A stretch of DNA of 64,000 nt, taken from positions 16,608-80,607 of the forward strand of contig DASXAQ010000020.1 in assembly GCA_036406615.1 (NCBI GenBank). Direction: 5' to 3'. Made by a program: the position numbers and the translations under genes. Positions within the stretch are counted from its first letter, which is position 1. Every line of letters begins with the position of its first letter. Shown piece after piece: positions 26,011 through 58,893 of the stretch. The stretch is from Actinomycetota bacterium. Lineage in GTDB: Bacteria; Actinomycetota; UBA4738. The notes under the pieces were generated by a model. It was not told where the DNA came from, searched no databases, and saw only the letters and a program-made list of their open reading frames with translations.

Positions 26011-27897
26011 TCATCCCCCGCCTCGAAGGACCCGAAGGTCCCCGCGACGCACCGTGACCCCCTGCGCATCCAGGTACTCGAGCAGCGGGACGGCGAACTT
26101 CCTGCTGGTGCCGAGCGCCTCGCGGAAGCTCGACACGCTGATCCCCTGTGCCGGACCTTCCGCGACGGCGCGACGCCCCCGATCCACCAGGTCGGGCGTC
26201 ATCACGATGTCGGCCGAGACGCGCACCAGGCGTCCTTCCGCACACACGGCCGACAGCAGCTCCGGTTCGAAGCCTCGCGCGAACAGCTCGGCCACGGTCG
26301 GCGGGGTGGGCTCCGCGGCGGCGACCGTGGCCGTCAACCGATCGGCCTCGGGGTTGCCTTCGGTCGTCGGGCGATGCGACGGCAGGCTCACCGTCGCGCC
26401 GGCGCGCGCGATCCGGCCGGTCCGCGCCAGGGAGTCGAAGACCTCGTCGGCCAGTCCCGGATCGGCCAGCAGCGGGTGGACGCGCGCCAGGACCGGGCGC
26501 AGGCTCGGCGCGTCGACGCCTGCACGCAGCGGGTGCTCCGCGTGCTGGTCGCGCAGGTGCGCATCGATCTCGCCGCTCACGCGCTCCATGATCGAAGCGG
26601 CCGCCACCCACGGCCCGAGTCCCACGAGACGGGCGCCCTCCCCCGAGCTCACGGCCGCATCCACGCCGGTCAGCACCCGCACGTCGGCCGCGCGGACGAC
26701 GCCGCGCTCCTCGACGAGCAGCGCCGCCAGCGCGCGCCGGTCGGTGGCGGCGCTTCGGGCGGCCAGGAAGTCGGCGTGGCCCGCCTCCCATCGACGAGGG
26801 GGTTCCACGTCCAGCACGCGGCCGCCGGCGACGGTCTCGCGCCGGCCGACTTCGCGGAGCACGAACGCGTCGTGCACGTCGAGCACCAGCGGCTTGCTCA
26901 CCGCGATCCGCGCCAACGCCGTGTCCCGGCCGGGCTCCAACCCGGGTGTTTGCGGCGGGAAGCGGACCCGCGCGTCGCTCTCGGCGGCGCCCACGTGGAT
27001 CTTGTACGCGCCCCTTGACGTGAGGCGGTGGGCCAGCCCGCGCACCGGCCACAGGACCACGTCGAACGTCGAGGTCGGCCGCCAGCGTCCCGCCTGCACC
27101 AGCGCGTCGCCACGGTCCAGGTCCGCCTTCGCCGTGCCCGCCAGGTTCACCGCGACGCGCGAGACGGGGCGCGCGACCTCAAGCGACCGCTTGTGCGTCT
27201 GCAGCCCCCGGATACGGGCGCGATGCCCGGACGGCAGGATCTGCGCCTCGTCACCGACCCGCAGCGGTCCGCCCGTGAGCGTGCCGGTGACCACCGTCCC
27301 GGCGCCCCGGATCGTGAACGCGCGGTCGATGAACTGCCGCGGGCGACCGTCCGACTCGGGCGGCGGCGCGGCCGCCAGCATGGCGTCCAGGGCCGCGCGG
27401 AGCTCGTCCAGCCCCTCGCCGGTGACCGAGGAGCAGGCAACGATATCCACTCCCTGCAAAGCGGTGCCCTGCAGTCGTTCTCGGACCTCCTCGCGCCGCG
27501 CTTCCACGGTGGGCGGATCCACCGCGTCGCGCTTCGTGAGCGCGACGACGCCGCCGCGGGCTCCCAGCACGTCGACGATCTCCAGGTGCTCCTCGGACTG
27601 CGGCTTCCATCCCTCGTCGGCGGCGACCACGAACAACACCAGCCGCACGGGCCCCACCCCGGCGAGCATGTTGCGGATGAACCGTTCGTGGCCCGGCACG
27701 TCCACGAACCCAACCTCGCGGCCGGATGGCAGCGTCATCCACGCGAACCCAAGGTCGATCGTGAGCCCGCGGCGCTTCTCCTCGGCGAAGCGGTCGGGGT
27801 CGATGCCGGTGAGCGCAACGATCAAGGAGGACTTGCCGTGGTCCACGTGGCCCGCGGTGGCCACGACGTGAAGCGGCGCGAGGGACGGGTCGCTCAC
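26011..27897 (-). CDS. selB: selenocysteine-specific elongation factor SelB
   Basis: VSDPSLAPLHVVATAGHVDHGKSSLIVALTG, DVPGHERF, TKRD, and long C-terminal winged-helix region. GTG at 27897 overlaps the selA TGA (GTGA). The upstream part of track ORF 26011-29034 is rejected. Confidence 0.9.
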   Translation of the reverse strand: MSDPSLAPLHVVATAGHVDHGKSSLIVALTGIDPDRFAEEKRRGLTIDLGFAWMTLPSGREVGFVDVPGHERFIRNMLAGVGPVRLVLFVVAADEGWKPQSEEHLEIVDVLGARGGVVALTKRDAVDPPTVEARREEVRERLQGTALQGVDIVACSSVTGEGLDELRAALDAMLAAAPPPESDGRPRQFIDRAFTIRGAGTVVTGTLTGGPLRVGDEAQILPSGHRARIRGLQTHKRSLEVARPVSRVAVNLAGTAKADLDRGDALVQAGRWRPTSTFDVVLWPVRGLAHRLTSRGAYKIHVGAAESDARVRFPPQTPGLEPGRDTALARIAVSKPLVLDVHDAFVLREVGRRETVAGGRVLDVEPPRRWEAGHADFLAARSAATDRRALAALLVEERGVVRAADVRVLTGVDAAVSSGEGARLVGLGPWVAAASIMERVSGEIDAHLRDQHAEHPLRAGVDAPSLRPVLARVHPLLADPGLADEVFDSLARTGRIARAGATVSLPSHRPTTEGNPEADRLTATVAAAEPTPPTVAELFARGFEPELLSAVCAEGRLVRVSADIVMTPDLVDRGRRAVAEGPAQGISVSSFREALGTSRKFAVPLLEYLDAQGVTVRRGDLRVLRGGG

Positions 27898-29282
27898 CGC
27901 GCGCCGAGCGCGTGTTCGACCGCGCGGGCCAGGCGCGCATCGTCGCCGGGCGCGACCGTTCGAAGGTCGAACGCCACCACGCCGTCGCCGGTTCGGCAGA
28001 ACACCGCGGGACGGCCGGTTCGAAGTGATGCTGCGGTCTCCTCCGGTCGCTCGGTGGGGACGACGACCAGCACCGACGCCACGGGATGGCCCGGCAGCGC
28101 GCCGCCCCCGAACGCACCGTCGCCGCGCTCGACGAACGCGCCGGGAAGGCGTTCGGCGAGCGCGGCCGCGCGGGTTCGAAGTGCGCGCACCGACGCGCCG
28201 AGCGCCGACCACAGTGGAATCTCGTCCCTCCGGCCGGACGCGTACAGGCGAAGCGTTGCCTCCAGCGCGGCCAGGGTCATCTTGTCCAGTCGAACCGCGC
28301 GCGCGATGGGATGGCGCCGCAGCGTGGCGACCAGGTCGGCACGGCCGGCCACGATGCCGGCCTGCGGGCCGCCCAGGAGCTTGTCGCCGGAGAAGCAGAC
28401 CAGGTCGGCGCCCTCCCGCAGGGCCTCGCGAACCGAGGGCTCGTCCCGCGGCACGCCCGGGTAGCGCTCGAGCAGTCCGCTGCCGACGTCGAACACCAAT
28501 GGGATTCCCGCTGCGGCCGTGATCTTCGAGAGTTCTTGTGGCGCAACCGTATTGGTGAAGCCAACGACGCGATAGTTGCTGGGGTGCACCTTCAGGATCA
28601 GGCCGGTCTTCGCCGTGACGGCACGGCGGTAGTCGGTGGCGCGGGTTCGATTCGTCGTGCCGACCTCGACCAGCTTGGCTCCGGAAGCGGCCATGATCTC
28701 CGGCAGGCGGAACTCGCCGCCGATCTCGATCAGCTCGCCGCGGGAGACCAGCACCTCCCTTCGGGTCGCGAGCGCCGCCAGCGAAAGCAGCAGGCCCGCT
28801 GCGTTGTTGTTCACGCAGATCGCGTCCGGCGCGCCGGTGAGCGCACAGACCATCCGCTCGGCGCGCGCGGTGCGCCGGCCGCGCGACCCGGTCGACCGGT
28901 CCACCTCCAGGTCGGAGTAGCCGGCCGCCACCCGCGAGACCGCCCGCACGGCGGCGCCGGCCAGCGGTGCGCGGCCGAGACCCGTGTGCAGCAGCACGCC
29001 GGTCGCGTTCAGCGCCTCGGAGACCCCCGCCCACTCCCGCGCCGTTCGCTCGACGGCGTTGGCGAGGATCGCGTCGGCCTCCGGCGGCTCCCGGCCGCGC
29101 GCGGCCGCCGCTCGGGCCGCCCGAAGCGACTCCGTCAGCGACGCCTTGAGCAGCGGTCGGCCGAAGCGCGCAGTGGCCCGGCGTCCGGCCTCGGAGCGCA
29201 ACAGCGCATCGACGGACGGCAGCGACCGCCGCCGGTCCGAGGGGACCGGCGTGCGCTTCGACCGCGCCGTTGATTGGACCAT
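27894..29282 (-). CDS. selA: L-seryl-tRNA(Sec) selenium transferase SelA
   Basis: 462 aa. LPSVDALLRSEAG..., NNNAAGLLL, FSGDKLLGGPQAG (PLP lysine). Confidence 0.9.
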   Translation of the reverse strand: MVQSTARSKRTPVPSDRRRSLPSVDALLRSEAGRRATARFGRPLLKASLTESLRAARAAAARGREPPEADAILANAVERTAREWAGVSEALNATGVLLHTGLGRAPLAGAAVRAVSRVAAGYSDLEVDRSTGSRGRRTARAERMVCALTGAPDAICVNNNAAGLLLSLAALATRREVLVSRGELIEIGGEFRLPEIMAASGAKLVEVGTTNRTRATDYRRAVTAKTGLILKVHPSNYRVVGFTNTVAPQELSKITAAAGIPLVFDVGSGLLERYPGVPRDEPSVREALREGADLVCFSGDKLLGGPQAGIVAGRADLVATLRRHPIARAVRLDKMTLAALEATLRLYASGRRDEIPLWSALGASVRALRTRAAALAERLPGAFVERGDGAFGGGALPGHPVASVLVVVPTERPEETAASLRTGRPAVFCRTGDGVVAFDLRTVAPGDDARLARAVEHALGAR

Positions 29283-36860: not shown

Positions 36861-36898
36861 GTCGCTCCTCCTGTTCTCGCAGGTCCAGCGTACGGCCG

Positions 36899-39856: not shown

Positions 39857-42800
39857 CGGCCGCCGGCATCCCGCGCGAGGTCGTCGAGGCCATGGGCGCC
39901 GAGCCCACGCCCGAGCAGTGGCGGGCGATCTCGATGCCGCTGGAGCCCTACGTGATCGTGGCCGGCGCCGGTTCGGGCAAGACCTCGGTGATGGCGGCCC
40001 GCGTCGTCTACCTGGCGCTGGTGGCGCTCGGCCGGATCGACGCGGGGCACCCGGGCGTGCTGCCCGGCAACGTCCTGTGCCTGACGTTCACGAACAAGGC
40101 GACCGAGCACCTGACGCAGCGGGTCCGCCGCGCCCTGCTGGCGGTGGAGCTCGCGGAAGGCGAGGAGCCGACGGTCCTCAACTACCACTCGTTCGCGGCG
40201 CAGGTGCTCGAGCGCCACGGGCTGCTCGCCGGCATCGAGCCGGGCCAGCGCGTGCTCACCCAGGCGCAGCGCGTGGAGCTGTGCGGGCGCGTGCTCGATG
40301 AGGTGGAGTTCCGCAAGGTCAAGGCCGAATGGCAGCCCTCGCTCGTGACGAAGATCCTGTCGCTGGCCGACCAGGCGGCCAACCACCGCGTCACGGCCGA
40401 CGAGATCCTGGCGTTCAACGCCGAACGCATCCAGGAGCTGCGCCGGCTGAAGGGCACGCGGACGCTGGAGGCCGCCGAGCAGCGGCTGGAGCTGGCCGGG
40501 GCGGTTCGGAGGTTCCAGGAGCTCAAGCGCGAGCTCGGCGTGATCGACTTCGGCGACCAGATCACCCTGGCTCTGGACATCGTGACGCGGTTCCCGCAGG
40601 TCGGCGCCGACTACCGCGTGCGGTACCAGTCGGCCGTGCTGGACGAATACCAGGACACGAACGTCGCACAGGCGGCGCTGCTGCACGCGCTGTTCGCCGA
40701 CGGGTTCCCGCTGACCGCGGTCGGCGATCCCGATCAGAACATCTACGCGTGGCGCGGAGCGAGCCTGTTCAACCTGATGGAGTTCCGCCGCCAGTTCGCC
40801 GCGCCGGGCGGCGCCGAGGCGCAGCAGCTGCCGCTGTACACGAACTTCCGGTCGGGCGCGCGGATCCTGGCCGCGGCCGACCGCGTGATCGCGCCGCTCC
40901 CGGCGGCGCAGCGGCCCGACCCCGACAAGCAGCTGCAGCCCTGGCCGTCGAACGGGCTCGGCTCCGTCGAGCTGGCGATGCTCGGCGACGAGTGGGCCGA
41001 GGCCGAGTGGATCGCCGAGCGCATCCTCGGGCTCCGCTCGCGTGTGCCGGCGCTCGCCTGGTCCGACGTCGCGGTCCTGTGCCGCAAGAGCAGGCTGTTC
41101 GCTCCGCTGCAGGAGGCCTTCGCCGAGCGCGGCATCCCGGTCGAGGTGGTCGGGCTCGCGGGCCTTCTGAACCAGCCCGAGGTCGTCGAGGTGCTGGCGT
41201 ATGCGCGCGCGGTGGCGGACCCGACCGACGGCGTCAGCCTGGCGCGCATCCTGATGGGTCCCCGCTACCGGGTCGGGTTCAAGGACCTGGCGCGCGTCGG
41301 CGGCTGGGCGAAGCACCGCAACACCGCCCTGCGCGACGAGGACGCGGACGAGGACACGCCGGCGTTCCTGTTCGCCGAGGCCATCGAGCACCTCGATCAG
41401 GTGGAGCGCCTGAGCGAGGAGGGGCGGGCGCGCCTGGAGGAGCTTCGCGACGAGCTGGTCGCGCTTCGCCTGGAGGCGCGAAAGACCGTGGGGGAGTTCC
41501 TTGCCGAGGTCATCCGCCGCACCGGCCTGCTGGCGGAGCTGGACGCGAGCGTCGACCGCGCGTGGGCCGCGGCGGCAAAGCGGAACCTGGCGGCATTCCT
41601 GGACGAGGTCCACGCGTTCTCCCCGGTCGAGGGCGAGCTCACGCTGAAGGCCTTCCTGGACTACGTCGACGTGGTGCGCGCCGGCGAGCGACAGGAGTGG
41701 TCGCCCGTGCAGCCGAGCGGCGACGACTCCGTCAAGGTCATGACGATCCATCAGGCGAAGGGGCTCGAATTCCCCGCGGTGTTCGTCCCCGGGCTCGCGA
41801 ACGGGCTGCTCCCCGACGCGAAGGTCCAGCAGAACCCGGCGGAGAAGGGCGACTCGCTCGACTTCGACCTGCGCGGCGACCGGGAGATGCTGCCGAAGTT
41901 CCAGGGCGTGCTGCGGTCGTTCTGGCAGGACCTGCGCGACCAGGCCATGATCGAGGAGCGGCGCACCCTGTACGTGGCGCTCACGCGGGCGAAGCAGTGG
42001 CTGTTCGTGAGCGGCGCGCACTGGTACGGCGACGACACGCAGAAGCCGAAGCCGCAGAGCCGCTTCATGGACGAGCTGTCGACATGGGCGGCCGAGACGC
42101 CAGACGTGGTCGTGGACCCGGGGCCCGACGTTCCCGAGGAGAACCCGCTGGCGGGGTTCCGAAACCGGTTCGTCCGCGATTGGCCGGGTCCGGCGCGCCG
42201 CGACGAACCGGACGATCTGTTTGCGCAGGGCTGGCGCCGGGTGGCGGTCGACGCGGCGCGGTCGCCGGCCACGGTCGGCGCGCTCGCCGCGGCCCTGCCG
42301 GCCGGCGAACGCGCCGCGTTCGAAGCCTCGTCGGCGGATCGCCGCACCGTCGCCATCAACCTGGTGGAGCGCGAGTCGGACGCGGCCGGCGCCGACGGCG
42401 CGCTGGCGGGCTTCGGGCCGGCCGGCCCCACAGGGCCCACCGGTACCGGCGGCCCCGCCGGGGCGCCCGGCGGGGGGCGCGGCGGTCCCTCGAGCGTGTC
42501 GGTCGGCGGGCTCATCGACTACGCGCGATGCCCGAAGCGCTTCTACTGGAGTGCGATCCGACCGCTCCCGCGCTTCAGCGGCCCGAGCGCCAGGATCGGT
42601 ACGCGGATCCACGCGTGGATCGAACGTCGCGCCGGCGGGCAGGCGACCCTGTTCGAGCTCGAGGAGCGCCCCGACCTGACCCAGGAGGAGCTGGCGGGGG
42701 AGCCGGGACGGCTCGAACGCCTGCAGCAGGCGTTCCTGGAGAGCCGGTTCGCCGACGCCCCGCCGCTGTACGCGGAGCGGCCGTTCCTGCTCTCGCTCGA

Positions 42801-43179
42801 GGGTTACACGGTCGCCGGACGCATCGACGCGATCTTCGGGACGCCCGAGGGTCCCTGGGAGGTCGTCGACTACAAGACGGGACGAAAGCCCGCCGCCGAC
42901 GACCCGCTGGCGGGCCTGCAGCTGGACGTCTACGCGCTCGCCTGCACGGAGGTATGGGGCAAGCGGCCCGAGGATCTCTCGCTCATCTACTTCTACCTGT
43001 CCACGGGCGAAGAGGACGTCCGGCCCGCGGACGATCCCGCCGCCGTCCGGGCTCGCGTGCTGGAGGCGCTGCGAGGCATCGCGCGCGGACGCTTCGACCC
43101 GCAGCCCGGCGACCAGTGTCGCTGGTGCGACTTCCTGTCGTTCTGCGACGCGGGACGCGCCCACGTGGGCGCCGACTGA
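39853..43179 (+). CDS. adnB: helicase-nuclease subunit, AdnB-like
   Basis: GTG overlaps the adnA stop (GTGA). AGAGSGKTS, DEYQDTN, TIHQAKGLEF, VALTRAK, and nuclease VVDYKTGRK + C...CRWCDFLSFC. Confidence 0.85.
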   Translation: MTAAGIPREVVEAMGAEPTPEQWRAISMPLEPYVIVAGAGSGKTSVMAARVVYLALVALGRIDAGHPGVLPGNVLCLTFTNKATEHLTQRVRRALLAVELAEGEEPTVLNYHSFAAQVLERHGLLAGIEPGQRVLTQAQRVELCGRVLDEVEFRKVKAEWQPSLVTKILSLADQAANHRVTADEILAFNAERIQELRRLKGTRTLEAAEQRLELAGAVRRFQELKRELGVIDFGDQITLALDIVTRFPQVGADYRVRYQSAVLDEYQDTNVAQAALLHALFADGFPLTAVGDPDQNIYAWRGASLFNLMEFRRQFAAPGGAEAQQLPLYTNFRSGARILAAADRVIAPLPAAQRPDPDKQLQPWPSNGLGSVELAMLGDEWAEAEWIAERILGLRSRVPALAWSDVAVLCRKSRLFAPLQEAFAERGIPVEVVGLAGLLNQPEVVEVLAYARAVADPTDGVSLARILMGPRYRVGFKDLARVGGWAKHRNTALRDEDADEDTPAFLFAEAIEHLDQVERLSEEGRARLEELRDELVALRLEARKTVGEFLAEVIRRTGLLAELDASVDRAWAAAAKRNLAAFLDEVHAFSPVEGELTLKAFLDYVDVVRAGERQEWSPVQPSGDDSVKVMTIHQAKGLEFPAVFVPGLANGLLPDAKVQQNPAEKGDSLDFDLRGDREMLPKFQGVLRSFWQDLRDQAMIEERRTLYVALTRAKQWLFVSGAHWYGDDTQKPKPQSRFMDELSTWAAETPDVVVDPGPDVPEENPLAGFRNRFVRDWPGPARRDEPDDLFAQGWRRVAVDAARSPATVGALAAALPAGERAAFEASSADRRTVAINLVERESDAAGADGALAGFGPAGPTGPTGTGGPAGAPGGGRGGPSSVSVGGLIDYARCPKRFYWSAIRPLPRFSGPSARIGTRIHAWIERRAGGQATLFELEERPDLTQEELAGEPGRLERLQQAFLESRFADAPPLYAERPFLLSLEGYTVAGRIDAIFGTPEGPWEVVDYKTGRKPAADDPLAGLQLDVYALACTEVWGKRPEDLSLIYFYLSTGEEDVRPADDPAAVRARVLEALRGIARGRFDPQPGDQCRWCDFLSFCDAGRAHVGAD

Positions 43180-43210
43180 TCAGCGCCTGCGCACGCGTTG
43201 GCGCCGACTG

Positions 43211-44305
43211 TCAGCGCCGGCGCAGCAGCCGGTCGTAGTCGGTGTCCTCGACGACGCCCACCAGCCGGCCCCCGTCGATCACCACCACCACGGTGCCGCC
43301 CGATTCGGACAGGCGCTGCATGACCGAGGACATCGGGTCGTCCGGCCCGGCGACGACGGCCGCGTCGGGCCGCACCATCGCCTCGCGGACCGGGCGCTCG
43401 GGCGTGGCATCGCCGGCGGTCGTCAAGGAGACGAAGCCGATCAGGCTTCCGTGCTCCATCACGGGGAACGCCTCGCGCTCGTGTCCGATCAGGAAGCGCT
43501 CGAGTGCCTCGCCGACCGTCATGTCGCCGGGGACGGCCGGCGGCGGAGGCGACATCAGCTCGCGGACCTGGGTGGTCTCGAGCACACGCCGGCGACGTCC
43601 GTCGCGGATCGCCCCGGCGGCAGCCTGGAAGATCATGAACCCGATCAGGCCGCTCCAGAGCCAGTCGTAGTTCTGCCGCAGGCCCGCCTCGACGATCGCC
43701 AGCGCGATCAGCGCCAGCCCGAAACCCTGTCCGATACGGGCGGAGATGGTGGTCGCCGTCCCGAGGCTCCCGGTCAGCTTCCACAGGCCGGAGCGCACCA
43801 GCCGGCCGCCGTCCAGCGGGAACGCGGGCAGAACGTTGAAGACCGCCAGGGCCAGGTTCAGCCGCCCGAGGTAGTCGAACGTGACGTCGATGGGACCCGG
43901 CAACGCGCCCGATCCGTGCAGCAGGAGGAACGCGCCGCCGATGACCGCGCTCGCGATCGGTCCCACGACCGTGGTGAGGAACTCGTCGCCCGGGCCGCGG
44001 TCATCCATGCGCGCATACGTGGCCCCGCCGAACATGTACAGAACGATCCCGAGCACCTCGATCCCGCGCAGGCGCGACATGCCGGCGTGCGCGAGCTCGT
44101 GGCCCAGGATCGAGGCGAAGAACAGGACGGCCGCCAGGACGGCCAGGGCCACCGCGCTGCCGGCGCCGATGCCGGGGAAGCGCGTGGGATCGGCGTAGAC
44201 CACCCACAGGTTGCTGGTGAACAGCAGGGCGATGATCGCGAACGACGGGTCCACGTGGACGTCGATGCTCCCGATATGACCGATCCGCCACCCCACCCCC
44301 TGCAT
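43211..44305 (-). CDS. M50 site-2 protease family protein with CBS pair
   Basis: Start MQGVGWRIGHIG. HELAHAG zinc motif, several TM helices, C-terminal CBS domains. Confidence 0.85.
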   Translation of the reverse strand: MQGVGWRIGHIGSIDVHVDPSFAIIALLFTSNLWVVYADPTRFPGIGAGSAVALAVLAAVLFFASILGHELAHAGMSRLRGIEVLGIVLYMFGGATYARMDDRGPGDEFLTTVVGPIASAVIGGAFLLLHGSGALPGPIDVTFDYLGRLNLALAVFNVLPAFPLDGGRLVRSGLWKLTGSLGTATTISARIGQGFGLALIALAIVEAGLRQNYDWLWSGLIGFMIFQAAAGAIRDGRRRRVLETTQVRELMSPPPPAVPGDMTVGEALERFLIGHEREAFPVMEHGSLIGFVSLTTAGDATPERPVREAMVRPDAAVVAGPDDPMSSVMQRLSESGGTVVVVIDGGRLVGVVEDTDYDRLLRRR

Positions 44306-44327
44306 GGTGACCGAGGCTACCGCAGGG

Positions 44328-45263
44328 TCAGGCGCGGTTCTGCACGAACTGCCAGCCGAACCGGCCCTTGATGCACAGGTGGCCGCTGGTGACGTCGTGG
44401 TCCATCGGCGAGCCGACCTTGACGATGTCACCGTCCTGCACGTGCAGCTCCAGCGTGCAGCCCACGCCGCAGTACGGGCAGATCGTGTCGGTCACCGTCT
44501 GCTTCGACTCGTCCCACGTTCCGTCCTCGCGCATCTCGTGCTCGGACCGGAACATCAGCGCGCCGGTGGGGCACACGCCGATGCAGTTACCGCAGTAGAC
44601 GCACGCCGAGTCCGGCAGCGGCACCGCGTACTCGGTCGAGATGCGAGCGTCGAACCCGCGACCGGCCACCGCGATCGCGAACGTGTTCTGCGCATCGACG
44701 CCGCACGCCTCGACGCACTTGTAGCAGAGGATGCACCGCGAGTAGTCGCGCACGTACAGGTCGTTGTCGACCTTGACCGGCTGGTGCACGGTCTCGGCGG
44801 CGGCGCCGTCCGGGGCGTGGTGGTGGCCGGGCCCCCGCGCGTCGCGCTCGCCGCCGGCCGCGGGCTCGGCCGGCCGGCCGTAGCGCCCCGCGTCGGCCGC
44901 GTACTCGCCGATCCACCGCCGGACGTCGTCGCCCGCCAGCGACAGGTCAACCGACGAGGCCAGAAACTCCAGCACCATCCGTCGGCTGTGCTTCACCCGC
45001 TCCGAGTCCGTCGAAACCTTCATACCCGCTTCGGCGGGCCGCGAGCACGCCGGTACGAGCGCGCGCGACCCCTCGACCTCGACGACGCAGACCCGGCAGA
45101 CGTTCACCGGCGTCAGGTTCTCGAGGTAGCACAGCGTCGGCGTGTCGATCCCCTGGGTCCGGCACGCCTCCAGGATCGTCGTGCCCTCCGGAACGCGAAC
45201 GCTTCGCCCGTCGATCTCCACGTCCACCAGGCGCTTCGGCGGCGCCATCATCACGCGGCTCAT
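44328..45263 (-). CDS. formate dehydrogenase alpha subunit, N-terminal Fe-S module only (NuoG/HylA-like, includes the Mo-type 4Fe-4S domain)
   Basis: Start MSRVMMAPPKRLVDVEIDGRSV (ATGA overlap with the upstream stop). 2Fe-2S region (CYLENLTPVNVCRVCVVEV), ferredoxin motifs CILCYKCVEAC and CVYCGNCIGVCP, then CPYCGVGCTLE...GHLCIKGRF. Ends ...GWQFVQNRA. Confidence 0.85.
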   Translation of the reverse strand: MSRVMMAPPKRLVDVEIDGRSVRVPEGTTILEACRTQGIDTPTLCYLENLTPVNVCRVCVVEVEGSRALVPACSRPAEAGMKVSTDSERVKHSRRMVLEFLASSVDLSLAGDDVRRWIGEYAADAGRYGRPAEPAAGGERDARGPGHHHAPDGAAAETVHQPVKVDNDLYVRDYSRCILCYKCVEACGVDAQNTFAIAVAGRGFDARISTEYAVPLPDSACVYCGNCIGVCPTGALMFRSEHEMREDGTWDESKQTVTDTICPYCGVGCTLELHVQDGDIVKVGSPMDHDVTSGHLCIKGRFGWQFVQNRA

Positions 45264-47140
45264 CGCGATCCCGCCCCGTCGAACAGGCGCAGCTTGGCGA
45301 TCGCCGACTGCACGGCGCCGGCGGCCGTCTGGCCCAGGCCGCAGATCGACGCGTCGCGCATCACCTGGGCGATCTCGTCGATGAGCGCCAGGTCGGCGCC
45401 GGTGCCGCCGTTCGATCGTCCATCGGCGAGGCGCCGAAGCGCCTCCTCCTGCCGGACGGTGCCGACGCGGCACGGGACGCACTGCCCGCAGGATTCGTCG
45501 CGGAAGAACGCCGCGATCCGCAGCACGATGTCGACCAGGTCGACCGTGTCGTCGAACGCCATCACGACGCCGGATCCCAGCGAGACGCCGGCCGCGCGCG
45601 CGTCCTCGAACGTCAGTCGCAGGTCCAGGTCGTCCGGCGTGACGAACGCACCGGCCGCGCCGCCCAGCAGGATGGCCTGCAGCGCACGGCCTTCGCGCAC
45701 ACCCCCCGCCTGGTCCAGCAGCTCGCGAAGCGTCGTGCCGAACTCGATCTCGTACAGGCCCGGCCGCTCGACGCATCCGCTCAGGCAGAACAGGCGCGTG
45801 CCGGTGGAGTCCGGCGTGCCGATCCGCGCGAACGCCGGTCCCCCGATGCGAAGGATCTCCAGCACGTTCAGCAGCGTCTCGACGTTGTTGATGCCGGTCG
45901 GCTTGCCGAACACGCCGTGCGTGACGGGGAACGGCGGCTTGTTGCGAGGCTCGGCGCGCTTGCCCTCGATCGAGTTGAAGAGCGCCGTCTCCTCGCCGGC
46001 GATGTACGCGCCGGCGCCGCGGCGAAGCTCGATGTCGAACGCGAACCCCTCGCCCATGACGTTGGCACCCAGGAACCCGCGCGCGCGGCATTGCTCGATC
46101 GCGTTTCGCAGCCGCTCGTGCGCCAGGGGATACTCGCCGCGGATGTAGAGGTAGCCGGCCTCGCTGCCGGTGGCGTAGCCGGCGATCGTGAGCGCCTCGA
46201 CGACCGCGAAGGGGTCTGCCTCCATCACGACCCGGTCCTTGAACGTGCCGGGCTCGGACTCGTCCGCGTTGCACACGAAGAAGTGGGGACGGACCGGTTG
46301 CTTCGCGACCGCCTCCCACTTCACGCCGGTGGGGAACGCGGCGCCACCGCGCCCGAGCAGGTTGGCGTCCTTCACCTCGCGGATGACGCCCTCGGGCCCG
46401 AGCGCCACGGCGGTCCGCAGCGCTTCGTACCCGCCGTGCGACCGGTAGGAATCGAGCGAGGTCGGATCCGCCTTGCCGACCCGCGTGAGGAGTGGGCCTG
46501 CCGAGCCGCCGCGCTGCATCGAGGCGGAAAGTCGCGTCTCACTGCGCCAATAGGGAGCGTCGTCTTCCGATGGGTCGCCGAGCCCGGCCTCTCGCACGAG
46601 GTCCGCGATCCGGGCGACGCCCACAGAGACGTCATGGCCGGCAAGCGACCCGTTCTGCACGAGCGCGGCCGGCGCCGCTTCGCACATGCCGAGACACGGG
46701 CTGCGGAGCCACGTCGCGCCGTCCCTGTCGGATCCGGGCGGACCGAACTCGCGTTCCAGGCTGGCGCACAGATCTTCGGCGCCGTTCACCCGGCAGGCGA
46801 TGTCGTCGCACACGTGCACGACGGTCTTCGGCCGCGGCTCGGTCGAGAACAGCGCGTAGAAGCTCGCCACGCCGTACGCCTCGGCCGGCGGGATCGTCAG
46901 GCGCTGCGCGACGTAGCCGAGCGCGCCCTCGCTGATCCATCCCACACGCGACTGGACCGCGTGCAGGACCGGGAGCAGCAGGTGGCGCTGCTCCCGCGCG
47001 GCCCGGCCGCCGCGGGCGATGTGTCCGTCGAGTTCGGTGCGCGAGCCGCCGACCCAACCGCTCTCGGGCTGCCCCAGGATGCCGTCGACGGCCGCGCGCT
47101 CCTCGTCGGTCGCCGACGCGGGCAGGAGGTGCAGGTCCAT
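45260..47140 (-). CDS. fused NuoE-NuoF-like (FdsG/FdsB) NAD(H)/FMN/Fe-S subunit
   Basis: 626 aa. NuoE-like 2Fe-2S part (VCDDIAC...CLGMC). NuoF part GRGGAAFPTGVKW, CNADESEPGTFKDR, ESCGQCVPCRVGT. Confidence 0.9.
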   Translation of the reverse strand: MDLHLLPASATDEERAAVDGILGQPESGWVGGSRTELDGHIARGGRAAREQRHLLLPVLHAVQSRVGWISEGALGYVAQRLTIPPAEAYGVASFYALFSTEPRPKTVVHVCDDIACRVNGAEDLCASLEREFGPPGSDRDGATWLRSPCLGMCEAAPAALVQNGSLAGHDVSVGVARIADLVREAGLGDPSEDDAPYWRSETRLSASMQRGGSAGPLLTRVGKADPTSLDSYRSHGGYEALRTAVALGPEGVIREVKDANLLGRGGAAFPTGVKWEAVAKQPVRPHFFVCNADESEPGTFKDRVVMEADPFAVVEALTIAGYATGSEAGYLYIRGEYPLAHERLRNAIEQCRARGFLGANVMGEGFAFDIELRRGAGAYIAGEETALFNSIEGKRAEPRNKPPFPVTHGVFGKPTGINNVETLLNVLEILRIGGPAFARIGTPDSTGTRLFCLSGCVERPGLYEIEFGTTLRELLDQAGGVREGRALQAILLGGAAGAFVTPDDLDLRLTFEDARAAGVSLGSGVVMAFDDTVDLVDIVLRIAAFFRDESCGQCVPCRVGTVRQEEALRRLADGRSNGGTGADLALIDEIAQVMRDASICGLGQTAAGAVQSAIAKLRLFDGAGSR

Positions 47141-47144
47141 CCGA

Positions 47145-49106
47145 CTAGTCGGCCCCCGCGCCGGCGGGCACCGTCGCGTCCTCGGCCGGCTGCCCGTTGG
47201 CGGCCGGCGCGTCGAGCTTGTCGATGCGAATGGCCGTCGCCTTGAACTCCGCCGTGCCCGATTTCGGGTCGGTCGCGTCGATCGTGAGCAGGTTCGTGGC
47301 GACGTCGTCGGGGAAGTGCAGCGTCATGAACGCCAGGCCGGGCCGCAGTCCCGTGTCGATCCGCACCGGCGCGACGACCGTGCCGCGCCGCGAGGTCACG
47401 CGCACCCGCTCGCCGGGCTGCAGGCCGTGGCGTTCGGCGTCCTCGGGCGACACGTCCAGGGTCTCGCCGCGGCGCATCGGCGAGGAGAACCCACCGCTCT
47501 GCACGCCCGTGTTGTACGAATCGAGCCGGCGCCCCGTCGTGAGCCGGATCGGGTACTCGTCGGTGAGCTCGTCGACCGGGGGGTCGTGGTGCACGACGCT
47601 GATCGGGGCCAGCGGGCCCTGTTCGTCTCCGTCGAGCCACAGCCGGCCATGCAGGAACTGCGCGCCCGGGTCGTTTTCATCGAAGCACGGCCACTGGATG
47701 CCGTTCAGCTCCTCCAGCCGCGCGTAGCTCATCCCGGCGTGCATCGGCGAGAGCGACCGGCATTCGTCCCACACCTGTTCCGCGGTTGGGTCGCCCCAGT
47801 CGTGGCCCAGGCGGCGGGCGATCTCGCCCATGATCCAGATGTCGTCGCGGGCGTTGCCCGGCGGGTCCATCGCCTTGCGCACGCGCTGGACCCGGCGCTC
47901 GCTGGACGTCACGGTGCCCTCCGCCTCGCACCACGTCGCAGATGCCGGCAGGACGACGTCGGCGATCTCCGCCGTCTTGGTCAGGAAGATATCCTGCACG
48001 ACCAGGTGCTCCAGGCCCAGGAGCAGCTTCATCGCGCGGTGCTGGTCGGCCTCCGACTGCGCGGGGTTCTCGCCGACCACGTAGGCGGTCGTGAGCTCGC
48101 CACGCTCCATGGCCTCGAACATCTCCGACAGGTGCCACCCGTAATCGGCACGAATGGGTGTGCCCCAGGCCTTTTCGAACTTGGCCCGGGCTTCGGCGTC
48201 CTTCTCGACGTCCTGGAACCCGGGGAGCTTGTTCGGGATCGCCCCCATGTCCCCGCCGCCCTGAACGTTGTTCTGGCCGCGCAGCGGCTGCAGCCCGCTG
48301 CCGTAGCGGCCGATGTGGCCCGTCAGCAGGGACAGGTTGATCAGCGCGAGCACGTTGTCGACCGCGTTGTGATGCTCGGTGATGCCGAGCGTCCAGCACA
48401 GCTGCGCGCGGTCCGCCCTGGCGAACGCGTGCGCCAGCTCCCGGATGGCCTCGGCCGGCACCCCGGTCGTGCGCTCCGCGTACTCCAGCGTGTAGGGCTG
48501 CACGGCATCGCGGTACTCGTCGAAGCCGGTGGTCGCGTGGTCCACGAACGCCTGGTTCACCAGGCCCGCAGCGATGATCTCGCGCCCGACCGCATTGGCC
48601 AGGGCGACGTCCGAGCCCACGTCCAGGCCGAGCCACAGGTCGGCCCACTGCGCCGACGACGTCCGGCGCGGATCGACCGAGTACAGGCGGGCGCCGTTTC
48701 GGATCCCCTTCAGGACGTGGTGGAAGAAGATCGGGTGCGTCTCGCGCGCGTTCGAGCCCCACAGGACGATCACGTCCGTGCGCTCGACCTCCTCATATGA
48801 GCTGGTGCCGCCCCCGGCACCGAAGACCGTCGCCAGACCGACGACGCTCGGCGCGTGTCAAGTGCGGTTGCAGCTGTCGATGTTGTTGCAGCCGATGACC
48901 GAGCGCGTGAACTTCTGCGCAACGAAGTTCATCTCGTTCGTGGCCTTGGAGCAGCTGAACATGCCGAACGAGAGCGGCCCCTGCTTGTCGACCGCCGTCC
49001 GGAAGCCAGCCGCCGCCCGATCGAGGGCCTCGTCCCACGTTGCCCGGCGGAGCACGCCGGCGTCGCGGACCAGGGGCTCGGTCAGTCGGGTGTAGCGCTG
49101 CGACAT
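47145..49106 (-). CDS. fdhA: formate dehydrogenase catalytic (Mo/W-bisPGD) module with in-frame TGA selenocysteine; lacks its own N-terminal Fe-S domain
   Basis: Track ORFs 48858-49106 and 47145-48773 are in one frame. Read-through gives ...NIDSCNRT-U-HAPSVVGLATVFGAGGGTSSYEEVERTDVIVLWGSNARETHP, the canonical FDH Sec motif. Starts MSQRYTRLTEPLVRD. Confidence 0.85.
48820..48851 (-). promoter_or_regulatory. candidate bacterial SECIS hairpin
   Basis: In the mRNA, 12 nt after UGA: GUCGUC-GGUCU-GGCGAC (48845-48829) above a CCGA/UCGG lower stem. The apical loop contains GU. A second hairpin GGUGCC-GGGGGC-GGCACC lies at 48821-48804. Confidence 0.45.
48858..48860 (-). other. selenocysteine (UGA) codon of fdhA
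   Basis: TGA at the position of the catalytic Sec/Cys in the C-x-R-x-U-H motif. selA and selB are in the same window. Confidence 0.8.
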
Positions 49107-49240
49107 GCCGCGCGACCTCCTCGAATCCGACCTGTCGTTCGAAGTCTAAACCGTGGGTCAGGATGGGGCCGGGTGGCCTCCGCCACAGGGCCCAAAGGAT
49201 CAGCCGAAAGGCGCCATCAAGGAATCGACCCCCGGTCCCG

Positions 49241-49918
49241 ATGGGCTATTGGAGAACCGGCATCGGGCGGTTCTTGACGGTCAGCCCGGGCAAACGCTTC
49301 ATCGAAGGGGAGCCGACCACGGCCTCACGAAGAACGAAATCGGACAAGCAGGGCACGAGCCGCCGATCCTCCGCGATCGCGTGGCTGCTCGCGGCCGCGG
49401 TCCTCTCGGGCCCGGCCGTGCTCGCTGCGCCGGCGGCGAACGCGGCGCCTCCCACCATCAACTGCAGCACCGATCCCGGCAACGGCCAGTGCAACAAGCT
49501 GTCGGCGACGTTCACGTGCGTCTGGAACAACCGCAACGGCACCTACTCGGCCGTCTTCGGCTACAAGAACTCGTCCTCGCACCCGCTGGTGGCCACCGTG
49601 GGGCTGGAGAACATGTTTCTGCCCGCTCCGAACGGCCGTGGGCAGCCGACGACGTTTCCCGCCGGCTCCACCGTGACGAACGCCGTCGTCGTCACGTGGA
49701 ACGGGTCGGCGTTGACGTGGGTCCTGCCCGGCGGCACCGCCACCGGCGGGTTCTGGGCCACTCCGTGCTCGAGCCCGCCCGTGCCGATGGTCGCCGGCGC
49801 GGCGCCGGCGCTCCCGTTCCTGCTGCTGGCCGGCGCGAGCCTGTGGTGGCTCCGCCGCCGCGGCCGGCTCGCATGGGTGCTCGCGGCCGTTCGCGGGTCG
49901 ACGGGGGGCGCCGGGTGA
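49241..49918 (+). CDS. small secreted Cys-containing protein with C-terminal TM helix + Arg cluster (candidate sorting substrate)
   Basis: Signal-like SRRSSAIAWLLAAAVLSGPAVLAAPAANA. About 130-aa domain with 4 Cys. Tail PPVPMVAGAAPALPFLLLAGASLWWLRRRGR. Start uncertain (ATG 49241 or TTG 49273). Confidence 0.65.
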   Translation: MGYWRTGIGRFLTVSPGKRFIEGEPTTASRRTKSDKQGTSRRSSAIAWLLAAAVLSGPAVLAAPAANAAPPTINCSTDPGNGQCNKLSATFTCVWNNRNGTYSAVFGYKNSSSHPLVATVGLENMFLPAPNGRGQPTTFPAGSTVTNAVVVTWNGSALTWVLPGGTATGGFWATPCSSPPVPMVAGAAPALPFLLLAGASLWWLRRRGRLAWVLAAVRGSTGGAG

Positions 49919-50682
49919 ACGTGCTGGCGGTCGGTGCGCATCCCGACGACATCGAGCTCGGCTGCGCCGGCACCTTGGCGCGGCACGTGTGGGCCGGGGA
50001 CACCGTGACGATGCTGGTGATGACCACGGGCGAGCGCGGCCCCCAGGACTCGGTCCCCCGGGTGGACGAACAGGTCGCCGCTGCGCGCCTGATCGGCGCG
50101 AACCTGATCTGGGGCGGGTTCTCGGACGGCGCCGTGCCCACCGGCGGGGACACGGTCGCGTTCATCGACGAGGTCGTGCGCCTCACCAGGGCCGAGATCC
50201 TCTACACGCACGCGCCGAAGGACAGTCACCAGGACCACGTCACGACGGCGCTGTGCTCGCTGGCCGCGGCACGCCGGCTCCCGCGCGTGCTCTGCTACCA
50301 GTCGCCGTCCACGACGTCGTTCGACCCGAACCTGTTCGTCGACATCGACGAGACGTTCGAGCTGAAGCGCCGGTCGCTGAGCGCGCACCAGTCGCAGGTC
50401 CTGCGCTGCGAGATGGTCGACCTGGAGGCCGTCGGGGCGGCCGCGCGGTACTGGGGCCACCGCTCGCGGGTGCGCCACGCGGAGGGGTTCGAGACGCCGC
50501 GCTTCGTCTGGCAGATCGGCGCGGATGCCGACGTCTCACGGACGGCAGGCCGGCCGGTGGAAACGGCCGACCCGCAGCTCGAGCCGGCCGCCGTGGAGGA
50601 GTGGGCACACCTGCCGCAGACGCGCACGCCCGCGCCTCGCTCCCGGGACGAGGCGGCGCGGCTGATGGCGGCCTCGGAGTAG
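49915..50682 (+). CDS. PIG-L/LmbE family deacetylase
   Basis: GTGA overlap with the upstream stop. VGAHPDDIELGCAGT and HQDH motifs. Confidence 0.85.
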   Translation: MNVLAVGAHPDDIELGCAGTLARHVWAGDTVTMLVMTTGERGPQDSVPRVDEQVAAARLIGANLIWGGFSDGAVPTGGDTVAFIDEVVRLTRAEILYTHAPKDSHQDHVTTALCSLAAARRLPRVLCYQSPSTTSFDPNLFVDIDETFELKRRSLSAHQSQVLRCEMVDLEAVGAAARYWGHRSRVRHAEGFETPRFVWQIGADADVSRTAGRPVETADPQLEPAAVEEWAHLPQTRTPAPRSRDEAARLMAASE

Positions 50683-50686
50683 CGCG

Positions 50687-52063: not shown

Positions 52064-52629
52064 GGAGTCCGCGCGTCCGGGTCGTGGTCGTGCTGGTCGC
52101 CTGCGTGGTGGCCGCCATGTCGGGCTTCTTCCTGCTGGTCGACCCGATCCGCCGTCTGGAGATCGCCGCCGCGGTGCTGCTCGCGCGCCCCTTCGGCGGG
52201 CGCGTCTCCGCCGTGGGGGGCGACCTGATCCAGGGCCTGCCGGCCGCGGCGCTTCCCTTTCGCGCCACGGTCACCCCGTTCTGCTCCTCGTTGATCCCGA
52301 TCCTGGCCCTCGGATCGATCTCGATGTTCATCCTGGCCGGCTCGATCGCCCGGCGCGCCGCGGCGTTCGCGATCGCGGCGGCAACGATCCTGTGCTGCAA
52401 CGTCATCCGAATCGCCGCGTCGGTGCTGGTCGGCCTGCGCGCGGGCCCGGCGGGGCTCGCCCTGTTTCACGACTGGGTCGGGACCGGCTTCGCCCTCGCC
52501 TACACGCTCGGCGGCTTCATGCTGATGCTCTACGTGCTGCTGCCGAAGGTCGGCCGCATGCCGGGCGCGTGGCCGGGCGTCCCGGCCGCCGACGCGGCGC
52601 CCGGATCGCCCCGAGGGGGCGGCCGGTGA
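52060..52629 (+). CDS. miniature exosortase/archaeosortase-like membrane protein
   Basis: 189 aa, about 5 TM helices. GDLIQGLPAAALPFRATVTPFCSSL (Cys), CCNVIRIAASV (NxxR), LFHDWVGTG (His), in the order and spacing of the exosortase core. GTGA overlap. Confidence 0.6.
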   Translation: MRSPRVRVVVVLVACVVAAMSGFFLLVDPIRRLEIAAAVLLARPFGGRVSAVGGDLIQGLPAAALPFRATVTPFCSSLIPILALGSISMFILAGSIARRAAAFAIAAATILCCNVIRIAASVLVGLRAGPAGLALFHDWVGTGFALAYTLGGFMLMLYVLLPKVGRMPGAWPGVPAADAAPGSPRGGGR

Positions 52630-55882: not shown

Positions 55883-56767
55883 TCAGTCCGTCAGGTCGAT
55901 CCGCTCGGGGCGCGTGTACACGTTGAACGACGGCCCCCGGAGGAACCCGACCACGGTCATGCCCAGCCGTTCGGCGGTCTCGACCGCCAGGCTGGACGGC
56001 GCCGACACGGCGGCCACGATCGGGATGCCCGCCATCGCGGCCTTCTGCACGATCTCGAAGCTCACCCGGCCGGACACGTGCAGGACCCGTTCGGACAGCG
56101 GCAGCGACCCGTCGAGCAGCGCCCACCCCACCAGCTTGTCCACGGCGTTGTGCCGTCCCACGTCCTCGCGCAGCGCCAGCATCCGGCCGTCCACGTCGAA
56201 CAGCCCGGCCGCGTGCAGGCCGCCCGTCTCCTCGAACACGCGCTGTGCCTGCCGCAGCGCGTCGGGAAGACCAATGAGGGTCGAGCGCGCGATCGCCGGG
56301 CCCGGCGGCAGCGACGAGCAGGCCACCTCCACCTGGTCGATCGACGCCTTGCCGCACACGCCGCAGCTCGAGGTCGCATAGAAGTTGCGCGTGACGTCAC
56401 CCTGATCGAACGCGCGGGACGTTCGAACGGTGACGACGTTGTACCGCTGCTCCGGCACGTCCGTGTCGCAGTAGCGCACCGACTCGATCTCGTCGCGGTC
56501 GTGGATCAACCCCTCCGTCCACAGGAAGCCGGCGGCCAGCTCGAAGTCGTGGCCGGGCGTGCGCATCGTGACGGCGACGCTCACCGCGTCCTGCCCGGGG
56601 CCGCGGACCTGGATCTCCATTGGTTCCTCGGTGGCCAGCCGGTCCGGGCGCTCCGCGGGCAGGCCGTCGCGCACCGCCGTCACCCGCGCGGCGCTCACGC
56701 TTCGTCGCGGCTCGGGCGAGTCGCCCGCGCCGCCGGTGTGGATCGAAGAACGGGCCATCGATCCCAT
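55883..56767 (-). CDS. fdhD: formate dehydrogenase accessory sulfurtransferase FdhD
   Basis: MRTPGHDFELAAGFLWTEGLI, SSCGVCGKASID, GRHNAVDKLVG. Start ATG 56767 or 56758. Confidence 0.85.
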   Translation of the reverse strand: MGSMARSSIHTGGAGDSPEPRRSVSAARVTAVRDGLPAERPDRLATEEPMEIQVRGPGQDAVSVAVTMRTPGHDFELAAGFLWTEGLIHDRDEIESVRYCDTDVPEQRYNVVTVRTSRAFDQGDVTRNFYATSSCGVCGKASIDQVEVACSSLPPGPAIARSTLIGLPDALRQAQRVFEETGGLHAAGLFDVDGRMLALREDVGRHNAVDKLVGWALLDGSLPLSERVLHVSGRVSFEIVQKAAMAGIPIVAAVSAPSSLAVETAERLGMTVVGFLRGPSFNVYTRPERIDLTD

Positions 56768-56792: not shown

Positions 56793-57374
56793 ATGGACGC
56801 GTCGCTCACGGGGGTCCTGCTGGCCGGCGGCCGGAGCGCACGCATGGGCGTGGACAAGGCGGCGATGGCGTTCGACGGCGAGCCCCTGGCGGTCCGGGTC
56901 GCGCGGCGGCTGGGGGAGTGCTGCGATCGCGTGCTCGTCGCGTCCGGCGACGGACGGCGCCTGGCCTGGCTGGGCCTCGAGCAGGTGGCCGACCCCATCC
57001 CGGACGCGGGACCGCTGGCGGGCATCGTCGCCGGGCTCGAACACGCGCCGGGGCCGGCCGCGGCGGTCGCGGCCGTGGACATGCCGTTCGCGAGCCCCGG
57101 CGTGCTCCGCCTGCTGGCCTCGCTGCGCGGCGACGCGGACGCCGTGGTGCCGGTCACCGACGACGGCCTCGAGCCGCTGCACGCCGTCTACGCGACGTCG
57201 GCCGCGGCCGCGTTGCGGTCGGAGCTCGAGTCGGGGGTTCGCGCCGTCCGCGAGGCGATCGAGGGGCTTCGCGTTCGCCTCGTGGAACGCCTCGAGTGGT
57301 CGCCGGCCGATCCCTCCGGGGCGTTTGCCCGCAACCTGAACCGGCCGGCGGACCTACCCCGCGGATCCGGCTGA
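56793..57374 (+). CDS. mobA: molybdenum cofactor guanylyltransferase MobA
   Basis: MDASLTGVLLAGGRSARMGVDKA, AVDMPF. TATCGT lies 7 nt upstream of the ATG. Confidence 0.85.
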   Translation: MDASLTGVLLAGGRSARMGVDKAAMAFDGEPLAVRVARRLGECCDRVLVASGDGRRLAWLGLEQVADPIPDAGPLAGIVAGLEHAPGPAAAVAAVDMPFASPGVLRLLASLRGDADAVVPVTDDGLEPLHAVYATSAAAALRSELESGVRAVREAIEGLRVRLVERLEWSPADPSGAFARNLNRPADLPRGSG

Positions 57375-57380
57375 ACCGCG

Positions 57381-57797: not shown

Positions 57798-57848
57798 GCG
57801 GGCTCACTCATACCACAGCGGTCCCACGGCAAGCTCGGGACTCCGTCG

Positions 57849-58115: not shown

Positions 58116-58268
58116 TGCACCTCCACCCCTTTTGATGAATCGCCTCACGCGAGGGTAGCCTTGCCGCGCGGAGCCGTGCGGCTCCGACGCGAACCGATCG
58201 CGGGGAGGGAGCGACACGACGCGCGACGCGCAGCGGCCGAACGCGGGCTCCCTGGGTATGGTGGGTTC

Positions 58269-58886: not shown

Positions 58887-58893
58887 GCCGGGC

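Follow-up and report, generated by a model that had tools for sequence, protein, structure and literature searches.

A predicted selenocysteine-containing formate dehydrogenase with its alpha subunit split between two genes in permuted order

Can the alpha subunit of an NAD-linked formate dehydrogenase (FDH) be divided into two polypeptides, with the C-terminal part encoded first, and still provide its full catalytic machinery? The question is raised by three genes on the minus strand of a 64,000-nucleotide stretch of DNA, referred to here as the window, from an Actinomycetota bacterium (contig DASXAQ010000020.1 of assembly GCA_036406615.1). In order they encode a catalytic module of the molybdenum- or tungsten-bis-pyranopterin guanine dinucleotide (Mo/W-bisPGD) type, a fused NuoE/NuoF-like flavoprotein (NuoE/F) and an iron-sulfur (Fe-S) subunit. 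The original prediction for this DNA, made without database searches, held that the catalytic and Fe-S genes are the two halves of one alpha subunit and that their order is permuted, with NuoE/F between them. Both claims are borne out, as the open reading frames (ORFs) and their Pfam domains are those described and the alignments to FdsA and to the TIGR01591 profile agree with the division. Together the three genes probably specify a three-subunit FDH that is soluble and cytoplasmic, linked to NAD(P)+, dependent on Mo or W and equipped with selenocysteine (Sec). The split and reordered layout is that of a conserved family found in several phyla of soil bacteria and is not a peculiarity of one genome.

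The catalytic module contains the Pfam domains Molybdopterin (PF00384, residues 7–431, 224 bits) and Molydop_binding (PF01568, residues 521–624, 94 bits), and Pfam finds no Molybdop_Fe4S4 domain (PF04879) within it. The protein begins with MSQRYTRLTEPLVRD at an ATG preceded by a GAGGAGG Shine-Dalgarno sequence, and an N-terminal extension is impossible because in-frame stops sit immediately 5' of this start. The proposed lack of an Fe-S domain in this module thus stands, with neither PF04879 nor any coding room upstream in which such a domain could have been overlooked. Molybdop_Fe4S4, the domain of the proximal [4Fe-4S] cluster (FS0), is found at the end of the Fe-S subunit, following Fer2_4 and 4Fe-4S dicluster domains, and this chain terminates in GHLCIKGRFGWQFVQNRA. 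The intervening subunit carries 2Fe-2S_thioredx (49–163), Complex1_51K (256–427), SLBB and NADH_4Fe-4S (537–616) in a single chain, as expected of the NuoE and NuoF fusion that had been proposed, and it keeps the cluster ligands Cys111/116/149/153 and Cys551/554/557/600. The junctions are as tight as first described, with the NuoE/F ATG 4 nt past the catalytic TAG and an ATGA overlap shared by the NuoE/F stop and the Fe-S gene start.

Alignment to full-length FdsA of R. capsulatus (6tg9_A, 958 aa) reveals a clean fission point. FdsA residues 25–303 are matched by residues 13–307 of the Fe-S subunit and residues 307–938 by residues 6–635 of the catalytic module. In the fused relative P0221, residues 7–300 align with the Fe-S subunit and residues 303–377 with the catalytic N-terminus. 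The TIGR01591 profile is likewise shared, with positions 1–50 on the Fe-S C-terminus (53.7 bits) and positions 51–672 on the catalytic module, whose score of 644.5 bits remains below the equivalog cutoff of 666.25 because the first 50 positions of the profile sit on the other subunit. The motif KGRFGYDFxNHPDRLxxPLIK runs uninterrupted through the fused relatives P0221 and P0262 and is split here, so that the break does fall at the KGRF...DRLTxPLxR junction to which it had been assigned. Domain content and fission point both fit the proposal that the proximal [4Fe-4S] cluster has to come in trans.

The 16 cysteines of the Fe-S subunit that are conserved in 117–118 of 118 family members are assigned as four to the [2Fe-2S] cluster (45/56/59/73), eight to two [4Fe-4S] clusters (177/180/183/187 and 221/224/227/231) and four to FS0 (262/265/269/297). 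The CxxCxxxC...C ligands of FS0 (C262, C265, C269 and C297) and the lysine of the following C-x-K-G motif (K299) are invariant in 61 aligned members. What the subunit lacks is the His/Cys3-ligated [4Fe-4S] cluster A4 of FdsA, since none of the 118 members has a cysteine between residues 74 and 176 and the HxxxCxxCxxxxxC motif of FdsA is replaced in the alignment. The description of this subunit as a NuoG-like Fe-S module therefore holds as regards the FS0 domain at its end, but it is not a complete NuoG/FdsA N-terminus, the His-ligated cluster being gone. In the structure of the R. capsulatus enzyme (RcFDH) the main path runs from the bis-MGD (bis-molybdopterin guanine dinucleotide) through A1, A2, A3, A5 and B6 to flavin mononucleotide (FMN), with A4 (His117, Cys121/124/130) lying off this pathway at the FdsA-FdsA dimer interface (PMC7171172). 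As A4 is off-pathway, the main electron path should be intact here, with only an inter-protomer link lost. The segment that replaces A4 (Fe-S residues 95–165; window about 44769–44981, minus strand), itself free of cysteine, contains invariant W117, Y121, G129, R140, G146 and H148 and a nearly invariant H147, and it probably has another structural role. A model of the isolated Fe-S subunit from AlphaFold2 was not used; its mean pLDDT (predicted local distance difference test score) was 57, with cluster-binding regions below 50 and block means of about 42–84 over residues 95–165, a poor result attributed to a 61-sequence family alignment (>=74% identity) that was too shallow.

The catalytic subunit is encoded as a selenoprotein, a feature that was absent from the original prediction. 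The mechanical ORF list gives its gene as pieces of 82 aa and 542 aa because a TGA codon stands in frame at 48860..48858 (within tgc aac cgc act TGA cac gcg ccg agc gtc), and the two pieces are one selenoprotein gene. The TGA aligns with the Mo-ligating Sec/Cys position of FdhF-type chains, is followed by the conserved histidine, and recurs at this alignment column in every one of the 68 catalytic genes of related loci that could be assessed. The active-site residues Sec83-His84 and Arg276 (in RGQNNVQG) are present, and R276 is kept in 119 of the best 120 database homologues of the catalytic part, all of which are post-UGA fragments with only the Molybdopterin and Molydop_binding domains.

A hairpin that begins 11 nt 3' of the UGA has the characteristics of a selenocysteine insertion sequence (SECIS). 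Over 67 distinct sequences of related loci its GGUCU loop is invariant and each of the six core pairs forms in 64 to 67. Pair 18–30 is C-G in 54 sequences and G-C in 13, through synonymous third-position changes. Overall pairing reaches 93% and drops to 16–34% when the partner is slid. A search of Rfam at permissive thresholds around the UGA returned no SECIS family match. The SECIS of E. coli fdhF presumably has the same 11-nt spacing and an apical loop that likewise contains GGUCU. Genes for selenocysteine synthase (selA) and the Sec-specific elongation factor (selB, with GTP_EFTU and SelB winged-helix domains by Pfam) lie 15–20 kb from the operon within the window.

The presence of an in-frame UGA invites the explanation that the split itself is an artefact, whether of misassembly, a rearranged pseudogene or UGA annotation, and that an FdsA-like alpha subunit is in truth encoded by one fused gene. 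Genes for Sec-containing FDHs are routinely called as two ORFs, as with Swol_0785-86 of S. wolfei (PMC3582634). The fused relatives P0221 and P0262 end with ...NNIDHCARL at the UGA, several 'short' library matches are fused genes truncated at their Sec codon, and the catalytic gene of the window is itself a truncated 542-aa call in data of the Joint Genome Institute (JGI). However, the UGA divides the catalytic gene at residue 83 and not at the Fe-S/Mo junction, and the Fe-S module is found 1.9 kb further downstream, beyond NuoE/F, with its own start and stop.

Comparison with related genomes settles the matter. A scan of species-representative genomes gave at least 554 confirmed relatives, from which the best 80 were taken (Fe-S identity 69–82%). 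By their labels these comprise about 36 Actinomycetota, 20 Acidobacteriota and 15 Chloroflexota, with one or two each of Planctomycetota, Gemmatimonadota, Dormibacterota, Vulcanimicrobiota and Armatimonadota and three that are vaguely labelled. The order catalytic-NuoE/F-Fe-S, which had been put forward from the single locus, occurs on one strand in 69 of the 69 loci among these 80 that have all three genes. The 4-nt overlap between NuoE/F and the Fe-S gene is found in 43 of the 69, and the median gap between the catalytic and NuoE/F genes is 10 nt. Nine loci (L009, L033, L041, L043, L045, L055, L057, L072 and L077), mostly Chloroflexota-labelled, have 1.3–3 kb of unrelated genes between catalytic and NuoE/F, such as an SBP_bac_3/SLT (solute-binding) protein in L009 and an opposite-strand subtilase in L043.

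The Fe-S subunit forms more than 120 database clusters with 75–84% identity, of 310–354 aa apart from a single exception of 392 aa. Close relatives with a single fused gene in standard order did not appear, as fused enzymes occur only at about 40% identity to the Fe-S subunit; the representative-library search behind this figure returned mostly metagenomic fragments and was used only for the identity level of fused forms and for the 'short' matches truncated at Sec. A tblastn search of a plasmid collection found no family member, only fused FdsA-type genes with at most 36% identity. The Fe-S protein of the window is present unchanged, and beside the same neighbours, in four JGI metagenome assemblies made independently, which answers, as far as possible, the concern over read coverage that accompanied the original prediction. 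With four assemblies in agreement, the same order in 69 related loci and all ligands conserved, an assembly artefact is excluded and the wider artefact explanation can be regarded as refuted. The identity of 70–80% maintained across phyla suggests horizontal spread.

In the proposed enzyme, the oxidation of formate would take place in the catalytic subunit, at its bis-MGD metal site, where Sec83, His84 and Arg276 are located. The Fe-S subunit would dock on the catalytic subunit by its C-terminal Molybdop_Fe4S4 domain, which would so provide both the proximal [4Fe-4S] cluster and the conserved C-x-K-G lysine in trans. Electrons would next cross the pair of ferredoxin-type [4Fe-4S] clusters in the Fe-S subunit and its [2Fe-2S] cluster, pass through the [4Fe-4S] cluster and FMN of NuoE/F and finally reach NAD(P)+, although the overall reaction may run in reverse. 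This chain would correspond to A1-A2-A3-A5-B6-FMN of FdsA, minus A4. Sec83 itself would be inserted through recoding of the UGA by SelB bound to the downstream hairpin, with FdhD and MobA responsible for cofactor maturation. The physical assembly of three subunits, the NAD(P)+ partner, the catalytic direction and the choice between Mo and W are all inferred, and the label 'NAD-type' reflects domain content only.

Among the closest counterparts is the NAD+-dependent Mo enzyme FdsABG(D) of R. capsulatus and C. necator (6TG9/6TGA, 6VW7), which has the same cofactor chain apart from A4, namely bis-MGD, a proximal and two further [4Fe-4S] clusters, [2Fe-2S], the NuoF-type [4Fe-4S], FMN and the NuoE-type [2Fe-2S]. 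FdsA residues 25–938 are covered collinearly by the Fe-S subunit and catalytic module together, and an FdhD-type maturase is common to both systems. Relative to FdsA, at an identity of about 35–40%, the alpha subunit is split at 303/307 with its C-terminal part first; Sec is found in place of Cys, NuoE and NuoF are fused, A4 is missing and no FdsD was seen. The tungsten enzyme FDH1 of M. extorquens AM1 (Fdh1AB; 7E5Z, 7VW6) also has its diaphorase as one polypeptide, which we take to be a NuoE/F-type fusion and which matches residues 228–614 of NuoE/F (317 bits). Its catalytic region is similar to that of the window (417 bits). In contrast, FDH1 uses Cys and not Sec and has a single alpha chain of 989 aa with its Fe-S modules in cis and no permutation of order.

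Among solved structures the best relatives of the catalytic module are FdhF of T. kivui (485 bits) and FdhH of E. coli (451 bits), with FdsA at about 400 bits. E. coli FdhF (1AA6/1FDO) and FdhF of the T. kivui hydrogen-dependent CO2 reductase (7QV7) share the U/C-H and RGQNNVQG motifs with the window protein. Unlike the latter, FdhF keeps FS0 at its N-terminus (residues 1 to about 60), the alignment of the window protein beginning at FdhF 61–63, and its partners are HycB-type ferredoxins and a hydrogenase instead of a NuoE/F flavoprotein. A stand-alone Fe-S subunit that resembles the NuoG N-terminus and links a NuoE/F-type diaphorase to a separate catalytic subunit is also known in HoxU of the NAD+-reducing [NiFe] hydrogenases, and the N-terminus of FdsA resembles HoxU (PMC7171172). 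The HoxU model NF005745 scores 137 bits on the Fe-S subunit, below its cutoff of 333. HoxU has no Molybdop_Fe4S4 domain, and the Fe-S subunit of the window is partnered with a Mo/W enzyme. A precedent for a Mo/W-bisPGD polypeptide shared by two subunits is found in formylmethanofuran dehydrogenase, where FwdB (5T5I) matches weakly with 69 bits and where the M. wolfeii enzyme has a separate C-terminal subunit (PMC7171172). The split of the window enzyme removes FS0 from the catalytic chain and in this it is unlike that of FwdB/FwdD. The latter falls at the C-terminal cap domain (domain IV) and leaves FS0 on FwdB.

The partner subunits also bring to mind a different chemistry, in which NuoE/F and the Fe-S subunit would form an electron-bifurcating (Bfu/Hyl-type) or hydrogenase-type module, and formate would be coupled not to NAD(P) alone but also to ferredoxin or H2. 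Among the best solved matches of NuoE/F are the bifurcating-complex subunits 9bov_B, 7t2r_B, 7q4v_B and 8oh5_B, and source databases list the Fe-S subunit as 'NADP-reducing hydrogenase HndD' (the JGI name), as 'YjgC' or generically as a '2Fe-2S protein'. Bfu-type HydB has a C-terminal ferredoxin domain with two [4Fe-4S] clusters, but Pfam finds none in NuoE/F, which stops at residue 626 just past the NADH_4Fe-4S domain (616). No hydrogenase catalytic domain was found in the window or in the conserved neighbourhood, and the Fe-S subunit ends in the FS0 domain of a Mo enzyme and not in an H-cluster domain. An identity as HndD was rejected, with NF040763 scoring 168 bits against a cutoff of 765 and no H-cluster domain by Pfam. 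A bifurcating or hydrogenase-type role is therefore considered very unlikely. The distant fused relatives P0245 (976 aa) and P0248 (961 aa; L089/L090) unite in one chain a Mo domain with a NuoG-like N-terminus before it and a NuoE-like domain at the C-terminus. P0248 was rejected as a close ancestor, being an Rnf-linked Stn/Bfu-like protein whose gene neighbours are rnf genes and one for a NuoF that has additional ferredoxin domains.

The genomic context raises the further idea that the complex does not oxidise formate to produce NADH but reduces CO2, and that the resulting formate enters tetrahydrofolate and glycine metabolism, as in a reductive-glycine-type route. Metal-dependent FDHs are reversible (PMC7171172), the operon of L001 adjoins a formate-tetrahydrofolate ligase and two GCV_T genes, and an FTHFS-like ORF cluster is present in nine related loci. 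However, such C1-assimilation neighbours occur in a minority of loci and none is found in the window, NADH is in general a weak reductant for CO2, and cytochrome c oxidase subunit III, cytochromes b and c and fumarase in the window suggest a respiratory lifestyle. As an account of the complex this is unlikely, although a CO2-reducing role is possible in some hosts.

Several observations weigh against the three-subunit, Sec-dependent FDH proposed here. In two related loci the genes are not together: L038 (7001–7921), in an Armatimonadota-labelled metagenome-assembled genome (MAG), has the Fe-S gene alone among glycosidase and glycosyltransferase genes, and L074 (4956–7915), in a Chloroflexia MAG, has NuoE/F and Fe-S genes with no catalytic gene within 5–7 kb, so that parts of the operon can be unlinked. 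tRNA-Sec was not found within the window, and a partial scan of its ORFs showed no selD. The single-chain AlphaFold2 model of the Fe-S subunit is silent on docking. As the catalytic module is closer to the FdhF type, its electron partner could differ from that expected for an FdsA-type enzyme. Finally, insertion of FS0 in cis is reported to be a prerequisite for insertion of the molybdenum cofactor (Moco) in NarG and DmsA (PMC5123574), and an FS0 supplied in trans would need a different order of maturation.

The position of the break may also have structural consequences. Domain I of FdhH, as Boyington et al. reportedly described it in 1997, is built from the N-terminal FS0 segment and two later segments of the chain. 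If this architecture holds here, the break would lie inside a structural domain and the two subunits would have to interdigitate, which, if real, fits their strict co-occurrence.

How such an arrangement arose is a more speculative matter. If an alpha-NuoE/F unit had been duplicated in tandem and had then lost both outer halves, a clean break and a permuted order would have resulted in a single step. No relics of a duplicated alpha gene flank the operon, where the short intergenic gaps leave no space for them, and no alpha-NuoE/F duplication intermediates were found. Recombination of modules is also possible, since the catalytic part scores best with FdhF-type proteins and the Fe-S part with FdsA. 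It is rather doubtful that a functional split and reordering, a one-step origin by duplication and horizontal spread among soil phyla all apply together. Were this so, Moco insertion without FS0 in cis would be an exception to the rule from NarG and DmsA. Having the Sec gene first, in tight coupling with the two genes that follow it, would tie synthesis of the flavin and Fe-S modules to the success of UGA recoding, and failed Sec insertion would leave a peptide of 82 aa and not a dead-end Fe-S fragment of about 380 aa.

In its chemistry and its chain of cofactors the predicted enzyme follows known NAD-linked metal-dependent FDHs. Departures from the archetype that are already known include loss of FS0 and Fe-S-rich extensions (PMC5123574). 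A full-text literature search, which covers few subscription journals and is weak evidence, found no FDH with FS0 on a separate subunit or with such a gene order. As far as this search shows, what is new is that FS0 sits on another subunit, that the permuted order is conserved, that Sec is obligate and that A4 has been lost. FS0 is usually held to be integral to the catalytic subunit of Fe-S-containing Mo/W-bisPGD enzymes, and the family would provide a natural test of the rule that FS0 precedes Moco as well as a ready-made split system for the engineering of FDH modules. With at least 80 species-level genomes carrying the family, the formate metabolism and selenium dependence of largely uncultured soil groups may be under-appreciated. 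Gene calls split at the UGA, together with names such as HndD and YjgC, could lead metabolic reconstructions to infer hydrogenases or broken FDH genes wrongly.

The features of the operon and the associated genes for maturation and Sec insertion are collected in Table 1.

Table 1. Operon features and genes for cofactor maturation and selenocysteine insertion, in window coordinates
Feature	Position	Strand	Remarks
Catalytic subunit gene	49106..47145	minus	Mo/W-bisPGD formate dehydrogenase module, 653 codons including Sec83, without Fe-S domain
In-frame UGA read as selenocysteine	48858..48860	minus	motif CNRT-U-HAPSV, residue 83
SECIS hairpin	48828..48846	minus	CGUCGUC-GGUCU-GGCGACG; begins 11 nt 3' of UGA
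Fused NuoE/NuoF-like flavoprotein gene	47140..45260	minus	626 aa
Fe-S subunit gene	45263..44328	minus	311 aa; [2Fe-2S], two [4Fe-4S] and proximal (FS0) [4Fe-4S]
Molybdop_Fe4S4 (FS0) domain	44337..44498	minus	Fe-S subunit C-terminus; PF04879, residues 256–309 of 311, 74 bits
selA (selenocysteine synthase)	27894..29282	minus	TIGR00474 464 bits against cutoff 268; Pfam SelA
selB (Sec-specific elongation factor)	26011..27900, start approximate	minus	TIGR00475 328 bits against cutoff 242
fdhD (sulfurtransferase/maturase)	55883..56728, start approximate	minus	NF001943 326.7 bits against cutoff 269
MobA-like guanylyltransferase gene (bis-MGD synthesis)	56844..57353, approximate	plus, divergent from fdhD	Pfam NTP_transf_3

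The fdhD gene lies 6.8 kb upstream of the operon on the same strand, and its product is 72% identical to the FdhD encoded directly 5' of the operon in L002; the MobA-like protein is 58% identical to its L002 neighbour. Across the related loci fdhD is upstream of the operon in 36 and a MobA-like gene is 3' of the Fe-S gene in 32. In the window about 6.7 kb of plus-strand, polysaccharide-type genes that are not found in L002 part fdhD and mobA from the operon. This block (49153–55138) encodes a PIG-L deacetylase, a GT2 glycosyltransferase, an exosortase-like membrane protein, an ATP-grasp enzyme and a UDP-GlcNAc 2-epimerase, and as fdhD abuts the operon in the close relative L002 it looks like an insertion. 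A scan of 43000–49600 for promoters and terminators gave no informative result.

Downstream of the operon (36755–44431) are a UvrD/PD-(D/E)XK helicase-nuclease pair (AddAB/AdnAB-like) and an M50 peptidase with CBS domains, a synteny that is also seen in L002–L004 and L085–L088. Plus-strand genes at 57375–61924 encode cytochrome c oxidase subunit III, a di-haem cytochrome c and cytochrome b. This is an actinobacterial bc1-aa3 region, which indicates an aerobic respiratory host for the Sec-dependent FDH. Divergent from selA is a lone NuoD-like gene (29327–30514, plus strand; NF004739 435 bits against a cutoff of 360), with no further nuo genes nearby, the next gene being for an opposite-strand Methyltransf_28 protein. 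The window also contains two ordinary housekeeping RNAs, the large signal recognition particle RNA (6733–6998, plus strand, 182 bits) and a tRNA-Pro(CGG) (18469–18545, minus strand).

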